A stretch of 10,630 nt of DNA. It comes from a virus. A program made the position numbers and the translations under genes. This document shows, one piece after another, positions 4,833 through 8,849 of this stretch. The notes beneath the pieces are model-generated. The model did not search any database, was not told where the DNA came from, and saw nothing but the letters and a program-made list of their open reading frames with translations. Where the stretch lies: the UHGV virus genome UHGV-1746214; one strand, given 5' to 3'. The first letter of the stretch is position 1. Every line of letters begins with the position of its first letter.

Positions 4833-5014
4833 TATTTACCTCCGCCGACAGACGGCTGTGTACGGTCGAGATATCGCGCCACCAGCCACGACCAGAACAG
4901 GCACAGCACCCCGGCAACAACAAAACCCGCCGGGGGATAAATCAGCCAGACACCATACGCCAGCAAAAACGCCCCCAGCACGCCCACCAGTGGCGCGAGA
5001 ATTATCAGAAACAT
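4832..5014 (-). CDS. Small membrane protein (60 aa, two predicted transmembrane helices)
   Basis: ORF with a GAGGT Shine-Dalgarno, wedged between the terminase large subunit stop and the portal start (its TAG overlaps the portal GTG); two strongly hydrophobic segments. Confidence 0.5.
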
Positions 5015-5025
5015 AATGACCTCGG

Positions 5026-6561
5026 TTAAAGCGAGCGGATGCCCACGCTGACCAGACGTTCAGACAGATCCGGCTCCGGTTCACCACCATTGACCAGCAT
5101 CCGGCTCATTGCTGTAAACATCGCAACAGGGCCGTCGATTTTGGCTTCCAGCGTGGATTTATTCGGGAAGATATTGTCGTTTTTGTCCGGTTTTACCGTA
5201 ACGTTAGACATCATCCAGTTCATGACCGGATGATTGCTGTGATGGAAACGCCCGGCATAGACCAGTGATTCCGTTTCCTTCATGGCCTCTGACAGATTAC
5301 GAACCGTCTGCGGAACCTCCACCAGCGGTATCCCTTCTTCGGCCAGTGCCAGGCTGAACTGCATCGCGCTCCACGGGTCAAATCCCAGTTCCCTGAGGTT
5401 TTCACCACCAATCCATTCCAGTAAGTCACTTTTTATCTGAGCATGATCGATAACATCACCATCCGTCAGAATCAGCTTCTCCATTTCTGCCCACTTCCGG
5501 TAAAGTTCTGCCTGCTGCCGCGAGCATCGTTCCAGCCGTCCTTCCGGAAGCCAGAATTTAAAATCGGCATGAACATGCCCGTTATCCGTTCGCCAGAGTT
5601 TTGCCGCCGCACAGATATCAATCTTATGAGCAAGGTCGACGCCGACCCACATGGGGTACGTTTTCAGCTCATGTCGTGGGGCAATGTATTCGCACTTCTC
5701 CCACTTAATCATGTCCATCCAGGCAGACTCTGCTGTTACCCACACATTCATGTGTTTCGTGAAAAAATTCACCCGCGCAGAGACCTGCTCCTTCGCTTTT
5801 TTCGCCAGGCGACGCAGATCATCCCAGCGTTTACAGATGCCCAGGCCAGGATTCGCTTTCTGCCAGACCGTTTCATCAAACGGATCATCTCCCTCATCGA
5901 GCGTGTAAATGATCGCAAAGTAGGAGTCGTCTTTTACCGCGCCCTCCACGTCGCTGTTATAGCCACGCAATACCTTGATGGCGTAATCACGCTGCTCGTA
6001 ACAAATCCCTTCCTTGTTAAACCCTGCCGTGGTGATACCAAATAAAAGGGACTGCAGACGGGCACCGGTCGCCGTTTCCAGAACGTCCCACACATCACGG
6101 GTTTTATGTGCATGCAGCTCATCAATAATGGCGCAGTGGATGTTCAGACCATCCAGGTTGTTTGCATCCGAGGAAAGCGGTTCAAATTTTGATGCGCTCT
6201 GCTCCTGGTAAATCGCCAGCTTGTTGAAATCAAACAATCTCCCGAGTGTCGACCGGGCTTTTCTGACCATATTTTTAGCGTCTTCAAACACGATTCTGGC
6301 CTGGTCACGCGTGGTTGCGGCTGAATACACCTCAGCCCCGCCTTCACCATCTGCCCCCGTCATATACAGACCGATACCCGATGACAGGGTTGATTTTGCG
6401 TTTTTACGGGCAACTTCGTTGTAGGCCGTCCGGAACCGGCGCACCATCACCGGGCGTCCGCTGCCATCGCTGCGCATGACAACTTCCCCGGTCTCTTCAT
6501 TGACCAGCGGAATGACAAAACCAAAAATATTAATGAGGATAAATACATGCCAGTCCATCAA
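5026..6561 (-). CDS. Terminase large subunit (Terminase_1-like), main 511-codon portion downstream of an in-frame amber codon
   Basis: Contains a P-loop-like VARKNAKST segment and a Walker-B-like [11 protein letters not shown]; located between the small terminase subunit and portal; the same frame continues upstream through a TAG at 6571-6573 into the 70-codon N-terminal piece. Confidence 0.9.
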
Positions 6562-6570
6562 CTCAATAGG

Positions 6571-6783
6571 CTAGCCTGCCAGCGCCCCTTTTACATGAGG
6601 CACAAATTTGTAGAAATTCAGGATGTGCTGCGCACGGGGTTCACTGAAATAAATCCCCCGCTTCTCGCCGTACTTCAGATCATCAAGAAAACGCTGGCAG
6701 GCCAGACGGACAAATTCGCCAGCAACAATTTCTCCTGCAACAACACGTTCGGCGTAGCGGATCCCGTCAGCCACTTTTGCCAT
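6571..6783 (-). CDS. Terminase large subunit N-terminal fragment (70 codons ending at in-frame TAG)
   Basis: ATG overlaps the small-subunit stop (ATGA); the LACQRFLDDL and PHVKGALAG segments resemble N-termini of large terminase subunits from memory; in frame with 5026..6561. Confidence 0.7.
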   Translation of the reverse strand: MAKVADGIRYAERVVAGEIVAGEFVRLACQRFLDDLKYGEKRGIYFSEPRAQHILNFYKFVPHVKGALAG

Positions 6784-7265
6784 CAGTCTCTCGCTTTTAA
6801 AAGCTCCGCCAGCGGATCGACATCATCCGGTCCGGCGATATTTACTTTAGCCCGGCTTGCCGGTGACATGCCAAACTCTGCAAGCATTGCCCGGATCCGC
6901 TTCCAGGCATCCGCTTTCATTGCCGCCGCGGGGTGCGCCTTAATCAGCACATCACCGTTCTGTGTTTTCGTGCGGTAGGTATACCCCTCAACATCGAGTG
7001 TTTCGCAGTGATGCCGGTATTCGGTGTAGGCTTCCACCAGTAACTCGAGTGCACGCGCATCAAGCTGAGAAATGATCCCTTCCGCATTCAGCTCTTCCGC
7101 CATTCGCCTGAACCAGTACTTCCCCTGCGCCCCTAAATGTTGCGGAATTTTAGGGAGACCTTTTTCATCCTTTTTGGCGGTTTTTTTGGGGGCTTTAACT
7201 GGGCGCTTTGAGGGGTTACCTCGTATCAAATGCAGGCGTGGCGGGGTTTTCGGAGGTCCTGACAT
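6783..7265 (-). CDS. Terminase small subunit (P27 family-like)
   Basis: 160-aa ORF with a Lys/Pro-rich N-terminus and a C-terminal EFGMSPASRAK motif typical of P27-family small terminases; immediately upstream of and overlapping the large subunit. Confidence 0.85.
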   Translation of the reverse strand: MSGPPKTPPRLHLIRGNPSKRPVKAPKKTAKKDEKGLPKIPQHLGAQGKYWFRRMAEELNAEGIISQLDARALELLVEAYTEYRHHCETLDVEGYTYRTKTQNGDVLIKAHPAAAMKADAWKRIRAMLAEFGMSPASRAKVNIAGPDDVDPLAELLKARD

Positions 7266-7329
7266 AATCGGTTTTACCTATCAATAGTTTGTTAACATTC
7301 CCAAAAAAAGTTTTCGAACCTGCGGCGAT

Positions 7330-7405
7330 GTGAGGAAGGGTCAGGCGGCGGTCCTGAAGCGCGAAAGGGGTCAGGGATTTGATCCCCCCTCCCCCCTGAA
7401 GATGG
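7330..7405. other. Candidate cos / packaging-site region (GC-rich motif cluster)
   Basis: Intergenic region upstream of the small terminase gene; GGCGGCGGTCCT at 7344-7355 resembles the lambda cosN core as I recall it; CCTGAAG is repeated at 7353-7359 and 7395-7401, flanking an imperfect G-run/C-run palindrome. Confidence 0.25.
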
Positions 7406-7505
7406 CAGCAAGAAACCACGCAAAAAGAAGATACTGGTCATCCATCAGGATGCTCAGCATGATGTCTTCAGTTAATCTCAATAAATAAACGATGGAGTCT
7501 AATAA

Positions 7506-8021
7506 ATGGATAAAACCAGAAAATATGACAGAGCCTTACAACTTGAAATCCTCAACGCCCTTATAGATTGTGCTCCTAACTCTTTAAACAAGGCACAGGA
7601 ACAAGACCTCATTGAGAAGTTTGACAGCTATGATCACTTTGTGGCGTGCATGTTATACCTTGAAATGCATGGTCTCGTTTCTACACCCTTCGTACGCAGC
7701 GATACCATGGATGGCGTTGATTTTATCTTCAATGCCCCGTACTGCAACATTACAGAGAAAGGAATTGATTTTCTTCTTGATGATGGCGGCTTAAGTGCGA
7801 TCCTTAAAGTTCAAACCGTTCGGTTACACAGTGACACGATTGTTGCCCTTGAGGATATAATCCGTGTCGCAAATATACCTGAAGATCAGAAGAAGGGATT
7901 GATTTCAAAACTCCGAGAGCTTCCGGGAGACGCCATAAAACATTTGACCCTACAGTTACTGACTCAGGGGGTTCTGAATCTACCGAACGCACTTCGACTA
8001 ATTCAAACAACCCTCCAGTAG
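7506..8021 (+). CDS. Hypothetical protein (171 aa), moron-like accessory gene on the opposite strand
   Basis: Only convincing plus-strand ORF; GGAG Shine-Dalgarno 8 nt upstream of the ATG; visibly AT-rich compared with flanking phage genes (about 38% GC counted over its first 61 nt); followed by a hairpin; no recognised motif. Confidence 0.7.
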   Translation: MDKTRKYDRALQLEILNALIDCAPNSLNKAQEQDLIEKFDSYDHFVACMLYLEMHGLVSTPFVRSDTMDGVDFIFNAPYCNITEKGIDFLLDDGGLSAILKVQTVRLHSDTIVALEDIIRVANIPEDQKKGLISKLRELPGDAIKHLTLQLLTQGVLNLPNALRLIQTTLQ

Positions 8022-8037
8022 GGCTAAACTCATCTGA

Positions 8038-8063
8038 GGGGCGAATTAACTCAAATTTGCCCC
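8038..8063 (+). terminator. Hairpin downstream of the plus-strand ORF (possible intrinsic terminator)
   Basis: GGGGCGAA / TTTGCCCC stem (8 bp including one G-U pair) with a 10-nt loop, 17 nt after the TAG stop; a TTTTT run follows about 9 nt downstream. Confidence 0.4.
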
Positions 8064-8156
8064 ATCCCAGCTTTTTACTTAAAACAACCCAAAATTCCTT
8101 CCGGGTATCTGCATGAATGTAGAAACTATTTTTATGCATTACAGCAGTGAATATTA

Positions 8157-8507
8157 TCATCGAATACGTTCTCTTGCTGTCTTCGCTCTGTGGCATTCCC
8201 AGCATAACGACTCAAGATTGGAATCATCATCAGTACCACCATGAGCTTTTGGGATAATGTGGTCTACAGTCCTGGCCTCAACAGCCCGCCCATTGCGCAG
8301 GCAGTTCTGACACAGATGATTATCACGCTTCAATACGCGCGCACGTATGGTATCCCATTTCGAACCATAGCCACGCTGGTGGCGGCTCAGTCCGCGTTGA
8401 TGCTTTACCCATCCTTCGCCACGATGTTTATCACAGTAACCAGAACTGTCTGTGGTTGTACCTGCACATCCACGCTTACGGCAGGCGCGTGGGGTTTGTG
8501 ATGGCAT
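8157..8507 (-). CDS. HNH endonuclease (terminase-associated type)
   Basis: 116-aa ORF with Cys-rich N-terminus and the HNH core HIIPKAHGGTDDDSNLESLCWECHRAKT; located upstream of the terminase genes as in HK97-like phages. Confidence 0.9.
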   Translation of the reverse strand: MPSQTPRACRKRGCAGTTTDSSGYCDKHRGEGWVKHQRGLSRHQRGYGSKWDTIRARVLKRDNHLCQNCLRNGRAVEARTVDHIIPKAHGGTDDDSNLESLCWECHRAKTARERIR

Positions 8508-8527: not shown

Positions 8528-8824
8528 TTAAAACGCTTCTCCCTCGGGGCGGATACAGATCGCACCCAGCCCCGCTGCCACGGCGTACTGATTATGTTCA
8601 TCGACAAGCTTTATTGTGCTATCAAGTAACTCACGACAGCGATTTACATTCGTTTCAATGCTCAACACCAGTGAATAAGCACCATTCAACTCCTCACCTG
8701 ATAAAAACGGAGAATCAGCAGAAACAATTTCCGATTTTATTTTTCGCAGAGCGCAAAGATTTTCTTCAATGCGTTTTCTCAGGATCACACAACGCCCAAT
8801 CGCTTCATAGTTTCGCTCAGACAT
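8528..8824 (-). CDS. Hypothetical protein (98 aa from ATG at 8824)
   Basis: ORF between Rz and HNH; AGGTAGGTG Shine-Dalgarno upstream of the ATG at 8824 (the ORF track extends to a TTG at 8842); lower GC than flanks; no recognisable motif. Confidence 0.55.
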   Translation of the reverse strand: MSERNYEAIGRCVILRKRIEENLCALRKIKSEIVSADSPFLSGEELNGAYSLVLSIETNVNRCRELLDSTIKLVDEHNQYAVAAGLGAICIRPEGEAF

Positions 8825-8849
8825 TTCACCTACCTGTTTCAAAAGTACT

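Follow-up and report, generated by a model that had tools for sequence, protein, structure and literature searches.

In Pseudomonas phage JBD26, atab is a late-operon gene that overlaps the stop codon of the small terminase gene by 1 bp and faces tab in a convergent arrangement; tab carries a promoter of its own and is active in the prophage. Anti-Tab binds Tab, and both the function of Tab and its tape-measure target have been shown experimentally (Patel et al. 2024, PMC10884400). According to the sequence record of JBD26, tab and atab share 47 nt at their 3' ends. In E. coli phage phi80, taiEcA lies within the Q operon on the antisense strand, "upstream of the packaging module", and atiEcA is in sense; TaiEcA is present in lysogens and falls upon expression of Q, and among 57 Tai genes no more than 5 have an Ati (He et al. 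2024, PMC11364771). In the TerI/anti-TerI (TERi) system of Listeria phage phi10403S, TerI targets the small terminase and the self-immunity genes are found in the lytic operon (Azulay et al. 2025, bioRxiv 10.1101/2025.02.27.640495).

The locus described here lies in a 10,630-nt stretch of viral DNA (UHGV virus genome UHGV-1746214), referred to as the window, in which an acquired insert separates an HNH endonuclease gene from the terminase genes. The insert carries two genes, A and B, that are real, overlapping and co-inherited, with A antisense to its lytic neighbors and B in sense in the late-region contexts examined.

The packaging junction of the host prophage

The window covers the late genes of a lambdoid E. 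coli prophage of the HK97 type, which all lie on the minus strand in the order holins, M15 endolysin, Rz, a phrog_4827 ORF, HNH endonuclease, small terminase (TerS), large terminase (TerL), portal, protease and major capsid protein. Three features define the junction:

8157-8507, minus strand: HNH endonuclease gene, immediately upstream of B in the late operon (Pfam HNH, E 2e-17)
7330-7400, no strand assigned: cos-proximal conserved segment, common to insert-free relatives and forming the left border of the insert
6783-7265, minus strand: small terminase gene of the Terminase_4 / P27 family (Pfam, E 1e-25), downstream of the A/B cassette in the direction of late transcription

From the HNH stop to the TerS start the distance is 891 nt in the window and 147 nt in two insert-free E. 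coli prophages (L052 and L053). The cos-proximal segment includes TCAGGCGGCGGTCC at 7341-7354, and at its right end the phiKO2 record matches window positions 7341-7400. Because that record ends exactly at 7341, cos probably lies at about 7330-7350, which would put the insert some 60 nt inside the right end of virion DNA.

Several other peculiarities of this late region were noted. Codon 71 of the TerL gene (window 6571-6573, minus strand) is an in-frame TAG, where the near-identical prophage of strain C012 (L002; NZ_CP119577) has CAG (Gln); by this comparison TerL is a pseudogene in the window copy, and the prophage is probably packaging-defective, with genes A and B intact. The phrog_4827 ORF between Rz and HNH (104 aa, window 8528-8842, minus strand) has a GC content of 0.44, below that of the flanking genes, and may be a second acquired accessory gene, in this case in sense orientation. 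In a relative from E. coli APEC E12049 (L053, 3637-4176), the space between HNH and the lysis genes holds an antisense gene of the YfbU family, a further backwards moron slot of the same late region, and this gene may also have an overlooked partner. In a sibling prophage (L051, 1-5300; GCA_054188145.1), an integrase gene, two AlpA-family genes and a Bro-N gene adjoin TerS and replace TerL, portal and other head genes, a stretch that resembles an integrative or satellite-like element which has entered the packaging module.

Gene A and its signals

The plus-strand features of the insert are as follows:

7434-7449, plus strand: imperfect inverted repeat CTGGTCATCCATCAGG, 57-72 nt upstream of A, from an alignment of relatives
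7494-7497, plus strand: Shine-Dalgarno sequence GGAG of gene A, 8 nt before the ATG and kept in aligned relatives
7506-8021, plus strand: gene A, 171 codons, from ATG at 7506 to TAG at 8019-8021, a member of phrog_3983
8038-8063, plus strand: hairpin GGGGCGAAUU-AACUCA-AAUUUGCCCC, with a 10-bp stem and a 6-nt loop

Gene A runs antisense to the late operon and encodes a 171-aa protein of 19 kDa and pI 5.0. It matches phrog_3983, a family of unknown function, at E 7e-58, and has more than 200 homologues in databases, all annotated "hypothetical"; an exhaustive profile search yields 1031 representatives at 50% identity, nearly all of 160-175 aa. The N-terminal extensions of some long homologues were considered as extra domains and rejected, as they stem from mis-called starts. 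Over the first 99 codons, pN/pS to close relatives is about 0.06; against a Dryocola relative, pN is 0.05 and pS 0.81. ORF A is a real gene under strong purifying selection. A homologue in Halomonas phage vB_HboP_4908 (L033, 1763-2311) lies opposite a 182-aa "hypothetical protein" annotated at the same coordinates, where the deposited annotation probably picked the wrong strand.

The insert is the lowest-GC stretch of the window, at 0.416 overall and 0.432 for ORF A. TerS has a GC content of 0.54, HNH of 0.52 and the window as a whole of 0.519, and a GC as low as that of ORF A occurs in just 2.9% of 516-nt windows. The hairpin begins 17 nt past the A stop and is followed, 7 nt further on, by a U run, and is probably the terminator of the A transcript. 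It appears moderately conserved as a structure: the RNA fold of 8015-8125 has a z-score of -2.05, 76% of the cells pair in 11 relatives, double changes occur at 4 of the 10 pairs, and RNAalifold returned no consensus structure for it. A scan for sigma-70 promoters of A gave nothing convincing, the sole consensus match, at 7259-7288, being at chance level, and Rfam has no match in the window. The CTGGTCATCCATCAGG repeat is kept across three insertion contexts, in E. coli, Citrobacter, Dryocola and Enterobacter copies whose further flanks differ, and may be a promoter or operator element.

A first-pass annotation, made from the letters of the window alone, had described an AT-rich 171-codon plus-strand ORF at the packaging junction, between the HNH and terminase genes, with its own Shine-Dalgarno sequence and a downstream hairpin, and with no transmembrane segment in its product (the maximum 19-residue hydropathy is 1.38); all of this is borne out. 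Its statement that this is the only plus-strand gene stands insofar as A is the only plus-strand ORF of the window with family support, but the locus is not simply a transcription unit of its own, as its partner, gene B, belongs to the late operon.

Gene B, a partner in sense with the late operon

The first-pass annotation placed the acquired segment at 7440-8070, as a single gene with a hairpin in its 3' flank. Across all loci compared, however, DNA homology between insertion contexts runs past the A stop to window position 8160, so that the unit extends from about 7400 to 8160 (~750 nt), and its 3' flank encodes a second protein:

7804-8160, minus strand: gene B, 118 codons, from ORF coordinates and cross-context DNA homology, unannotated in RefSeq
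8157-8160, minus strand: ATGA junction read from the sequence, with the B start ATG (8160-8158) over the HNH stop TGA (8159-8157)
7897-8021, both strands: dual-coding segment in which codons 129-171 of A lie opposite codons 47-88 (approximately) of B, delimited by a drop in synonymous divergence

As A is antisense to the lytic operon, B shares the orientation of that operon, and it often adjoins the preceding gene closely. The ATGA overlap of start and stop codons, also present in L005 and L071, implies that B is translationally coupled to the late operon; in Proteus, B starts 13 nt after the tape-measure gene. The antisense overlap covers 218 nt at the 3' end of A, corresponding to its last 72 codons, and leaves the first 46 codons of B outside A. 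The hairpin downstream of A is embedded in the coding sequence of B (codons 33-41).

When the 50 non-overlapping residues of B were used in tblastn searches, matches were found beside A in Proteus (59% identity), Pectobacterium (58%), GF-2 (48%), Salmonella (42%) and E. marmotae (30%), and also in Xenorhabdus and Morganella, with E values of 1e-12 to 1e-17 at loci where the DNA has diverged; diverged versions are recognizable in Pseudomonas and Acinetobacter. B accompanies A at 74 of 87 distinct A loci (85%), including 67 of the 68 whose A shares at least 45% identity with the copy in the window. It is absent from a subfamily adjoining tape-measure genes (L016, L020, L026). The B frame is open for at least 89 codons in all relatives (89-118 codons), with a conserved core of about residues 1-88 (7897-8160).

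Gene callers almost never call B. In Escherichia phage PhiR49_2 (L001, ~4884-5230), where TerL is intact, the HNH DNA is present and is not annotated as HNH, B is likewise unannotated, and a 61-aa plus-strand "hypothetical protein" is annotated in the HNH region instead. In the Q/holin slot of Klebsiella (L059-L062, ~5335-5760), B is split over two frames, with two HMM matches, in four independent assemblies; a frameshifted pseudogene could account for this, as could a shift that stems from sequencing or is programmed.

Selection on both strands of the overlap

In B codons 2-46, which lie outside A, pN/pS between close pairs is about 0.1 (0.10/0.80, 0.08/0.68 and 0.07/0.84), and this part is therefore protein-coding. 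The synonymous divergence of A is saturated over codons 1-99 (0.82) and 100-128 (0.75), and drops to 0.375 over codons 129-171, coinciding exactly with the overlap of the conserved B core (residues 47-88); for the pair formed by the window and L003 the change is from 0.81 to 0.14. Codon position 1 of A is opposite codon position 1 of B. Beyond residue 88, the B tail has pN greater than pS and variable stop positions, so that functional B has about 88 aa and the truly dual-coding stretch about 125 nt. Both A and B are under purifying selection, and their overlap carries a dual-coding signature.

One could suppose instead that B is not a functional protein, and that its conservation comes from an RNA or DNA element, such as the A terminator or an antisense regulator, together with the shadow of the coding constraint on A. 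The overlapping part of B has a pN/pS of about 1, its tail is clearly unselected, the hairpin lies inside it, and gene callers nearly always pass it over. This explanation is nevertheless highly improbable, as it leaves the 45 codons outside A, with pS of 0.65-0.84 and pN of 0.07-0.11 in close pairs, unaccounted for, and runs against the persistence of amino-acid similarity where DNA has diverged, the frame that stays open in every relative, the confident and compact AF2 fold of B, and the suppression of the synonymous rate of A only over the B core.

Acquisition and mobility of the insert

A moron in the sense of Juhala et al. 2000 is reportedly an extra transcription unit between two phage genes. 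The insert is missing at the same junction from the otherwise collinear L052 and L053, its composition differs from that of the flanking genes (GC 0.416 against 0.519), and, out of 5426 complete E. coli genomes, 27 carry it, against 276 in which the TerS-proximal cos-side sequence is present in part, chiefly the first ~130 nt of it. A copy of A that is 96% identical occupies this slot in phages with a TerL just ~36%, and an HNH ~65%, identical to those of the window, and the packaging genes beside this near-identical A share just 35-65% identity. Among contexts with called or annotated genes, A was found in the following slots:

HNH/TerS: the window
Q/holin: Salmonella (1676 collection blocks) and Klebsiella
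Rha-like gene/late genes: E. marmotae
Tape-measure/minor-tail genes: Proteus
End of a prophage remnant, next to lysis genes: Enterobacter
Directly after an Mnt/Arc-like regulator, in an immI-like region: Edwardsiella phage GF-2
After cI, in a rexAB-like slot: Acinetobacter AbIPP1
Between cII and cro: Pseudomonas

The near-identical A of L111 lies on the other side of HNH. Wherever genes have been called or annotated, A is antisense to its lytic neighbors and B in sense, whichever late-region slot is occupied. An automatic count of flank orientation finds both flanks opposite to A at 50 of 87 loci, a figure that spurious long ORFs pull down; L071, the one apparent exception looked at closely, has the arrangement of the window, and tblastn shows that its close relatives share the HNH/TerL order. 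A CAGCA direct repeat at the insert borders was rejected as a target duplication, being too short to mean anything.

The many slots, and the antisense placement in those of the late region, argue for horizontal acquisition, and the interpretation of the insert as a moron, already put forward in the first-pass annotation along with a comparison of the same junction in related prophages, is well supported. It was incomplete, because the unit is a two-gene overlapping cassette.

The slots also bear on the idea that A is an anti-defence or early-entry gene, among the first to be transcribed after injection, that counters host immunity. In the window, the inferred cos would place A at the end of the chromosome, with the cassette some 60 nt from the right DNA end and A reading inward, and an acidic protein such as A could act as a DNA mimic. 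In most other phages, however, the cassette is far from any DNA end (Q/holin, TMP/tail, after cI), and hence the end position is no family trait. Since this idea also leaves the B partner and the orientation rule unexplained, it is considered very unlikely.

Predicted proteins and their possible roles

The predicted structure of A combines a winged helix-turn-helix fold in the N-terminal half with a conserved four-helix region in the C-terminal half. The two halves differ in conservation, with a majority-residue fraction of about 0.5 in the first and about 0.75 in the second, including residues 83-128, which are unconstrained by B; the strongest motif of the family is ITxKGIDFLxDDGGLSAILxVQTV[RK]xH. 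A variable N-terminal half is as would be expected for a diversifying recognition domain. B, predicted from 13 sequences, is a small beta-barrel for which the AF2 fold is confident and compact, and hydropathy gives no membrane segment in either protein.

The profile and structure-based searches that the first-pass annotation had proposed placed A in phrog_3983 and among winged-helix proteins, and yielded neither a function nor a full-length fold match. Fold searches returned MarR/PadR/YjcQ-like and generic winged-helix matches and generic helical bundles, A has no Pfam match at E <=1 and none in NCBIfam, and no PADLOC-DB v2 model is matched by A or B. The literature searched held nothing relevant on DUF2513, phrog_3983 or its protein accessions. 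In a PDB profile search, residues 101-143 of A (window 7806-7934), ALEDIIRVANLPEEKKKGLISKLRELPADAIKHL, aligned to each B-type domain of Staphylococcus aureus protein A at per-domain E values of 2-10; homology was rejected, as the per-domain match is weak and the summed E value is inflated by the repeats, and the likeness is probably a convergent helix-loop-helix similarity.

The winged-helix fold would also suit a regulator, and A might be a prophage-expressed transcription factor, a repressor or activator of phage or host genes, that brings about lysogenic conversion or locks the late genes, with B as an anti-regulator or an unrelated late accessory protein. Apart from the MarR/PadR/YjcQ-like matches, this finds some backing in the conserved inverted repeat upstream of A, in the co-transcription of A with cI or an Mnt-like regulator in two phages, and in one record that annotates an A homologue as "putative transcriptional regulator". 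The family is acidic, however, with a median pI of 5.5 (4.9 for the N-domain), and helix 3 plus the wing has a median net charge of -2 (range -7 to +1), so that the would-be recognition surface is net negative and classical DNA binding by A is unlikely. A thus lacks the basic DNA-reading surface, as well as the Pfam membership, of such regulators; the half that would read DNA is the least conserved part of the protein; no cognate operator travels with the cassette beyond the 16-nt imperfect repeat; and the insertion sites have no regulated neighbor in common. A role as transcription factor is accordingly rated unlikely.

A second possibility is that A and B form a toxin-antitoxin-like addiction or abortive-infection pair, in which one protein is toxic and the antidote is the other protein or its antisense RNA, and which stabilizes the prophage or kills infected cells. 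Convergent overlapping transcripts are a feature of type I toxin-antitoxin systems, and the unit is small, mobile and tightly co-inherited. Yet neither protein resembles known toxin or antitoxin families or has a membrane segment, and B always depends on a foreign lytic operon for its transcription. Several lineages have A without B, which is hard to reconcile with an obligatory antidote, and the possibility is judged distinctly unlikely.

The favored function of A is superinfection exclusion or defense, which was among the candidates of the first-pass annotation. Two distant A-only homologues outside prophages, one adjoining a Type IIG restriction-modification gene and the other a DUF4238 gene, lend independent, though thin, support to this reading, as they represent two loci. 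Several B-less A homologues adjoin tape-measure genes, an echo of the tape-measure target of Tab that is suggestive and not evidence.

A model for the A/B module

By analogy with the layouts of JBD26, phi80 and the Listeria phage, A would be an anti-phage protein and B a self-immunity protein, and we give about even chances to A being a defense protein expressed in the lysogen and B its late-expressed self-immunity partner. The insert would then be a mobile two-gene module built as a "non-contiguous operon". In the lysogen, A would be expressed from a promoter of its own or, in other phages, as part of the transcript of cI or an Mnt-like repressor, and would bind a protein of superinfecting phages, with the variable acidic winged-helix half as specificity domain and the conserved helical half as the common functional part. 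B would be made only when the Q-antiterminated late transcript passes through HNH, by way of the ATGA coupling, and would neutralize A and so spare lytic growth by the prophage itself. As the late transcript is antisense to A, it should at the same time lower A expression. In this model, we infer the timing of expression, the binding of A to B and the anti-phage activity.

A broader reading, which we hold only tentatively, is that A/B is a widespread and unrecognized anti-phage system of Gammaproteobacterial prophages with a hidden dual-coding antidote. The acidic winged-helix A would stop rival phages at a late step, either packaging or the assembly of tails, and the small beta-barrel B of the late operon would switch it off. 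The self-immunity gene could have stayed invisible because some 125 nt of it are genuinely dual-coding, antisense to the defense gene.

If this were true, A/B would have come upon the Tab/Tai logic independently, as its third or fourth invention in evolution, meaning that the design of a defense on one strand and an antidote in the lytic operon arose repeatedly from unrelated proteins, and it would count among the clearest long antisense overlaps of two protein genes selected on both strands. phrog_3983, everywhere "hypothetical" and present in hundreds of enterobacterial prophages, would gain a testable function, and annotations would have to take in its hidden partner B. A strand-inverted gene in a late operon, together with a short overlapping ORF in sense, would moreover be a searchable signature for defense systems. 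The dual-coding segment offers a clean natural example for the study of two proteins evolving on opposite strands, and such modules may account for unexplained resistance met in phage therapy and in prophage typing of E. coli and Salmonella.

Comparison with known systems

Some candidate relatives of A can be set aside. GiPD474 of Gifsy-1 has an ATPase domain and was rejected for that reason. Scores to the YjcQ/DUF2513-type winged-helix proteins of phages, families with no known function, are below the Pfam threshold, and A has an additional and more conserved C-terminal half of 90 residues.

The layout of A and B is that of a non-contiguous operon, with the putative defense gene opposite the lytic operon and an overlapping partner in sense. 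The Tab/anti-Tab module resembles the order HNH-B-A closely: in both, a sense gene (the counter-defense gene of JBD26) overlaps the preceding stop codon and is followed by a convergent gene (the defense gene) that overlaps it at the 3' end, and both modules lie in the packaging region. Tab, however, is a protein of 83 aa known only from JBD26-like phages, whereas A is a winged-helix protein of 171 aa by prediction and occurs across Gammaproteobacteria; the overlap is 47 nt for tab/atab and 125-218 nt for A/B; and Tab keeps to a fixed slot between TerS and TerL, whereas A/B moves between slots. No homology of A or B to Tab (JBD26 gp31) or anti-Tab (gp30) was found with hhalign (probability 0.1-0.2%), and the PHROGs differ, being phrog_14530 and phrog_13614 for Tab and anti-Tab, phrog_3983 for A and none for B.

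With Tai/Ati, the A/B module shares a moron-type gene that is antisense in the Q-dependent late operon, mostly upstream of the genes for packaging, as well as occurrence in other hotspots and mobile elements. A small late-expressed antidote and a defense protein expressed in the lysogen would be a further likeness, with expression of A and B inferred by analogy. In phi80, tai and ati are divergent, with a 20-nt 5' overlap and ati downstream of tai, whereas A and B are convergent with a long 3' overlap and B upstream; and Ati accompanies 5 of 57 Tai genes, compared with 85% of A loci that have B. Here too hhalign found no homology, with probabilities of 0.1% and 0.5% for A/B against TaiEcA (phi80 Orf63, 204 aa, phrog_5483) and AtiEcA (Orf64, 76 aa, phrog_20632), whose PHROGs differ from those of A/B.

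TerI follows the logic proposed here for A and B, and also overlaps a gene on the other strand; it differs from A/B in its Gram-positive host, its defense protein of 65 aa, its placement in the early lytic operon and its two antidotes. As far as anatomy can tell, A/B is a module of the Tab/Tai type that falls outside the Tab and Tai families, and it appears unusual for a module of this kind in two respects, the long dual-coding overlap and the wide mobility between slots.
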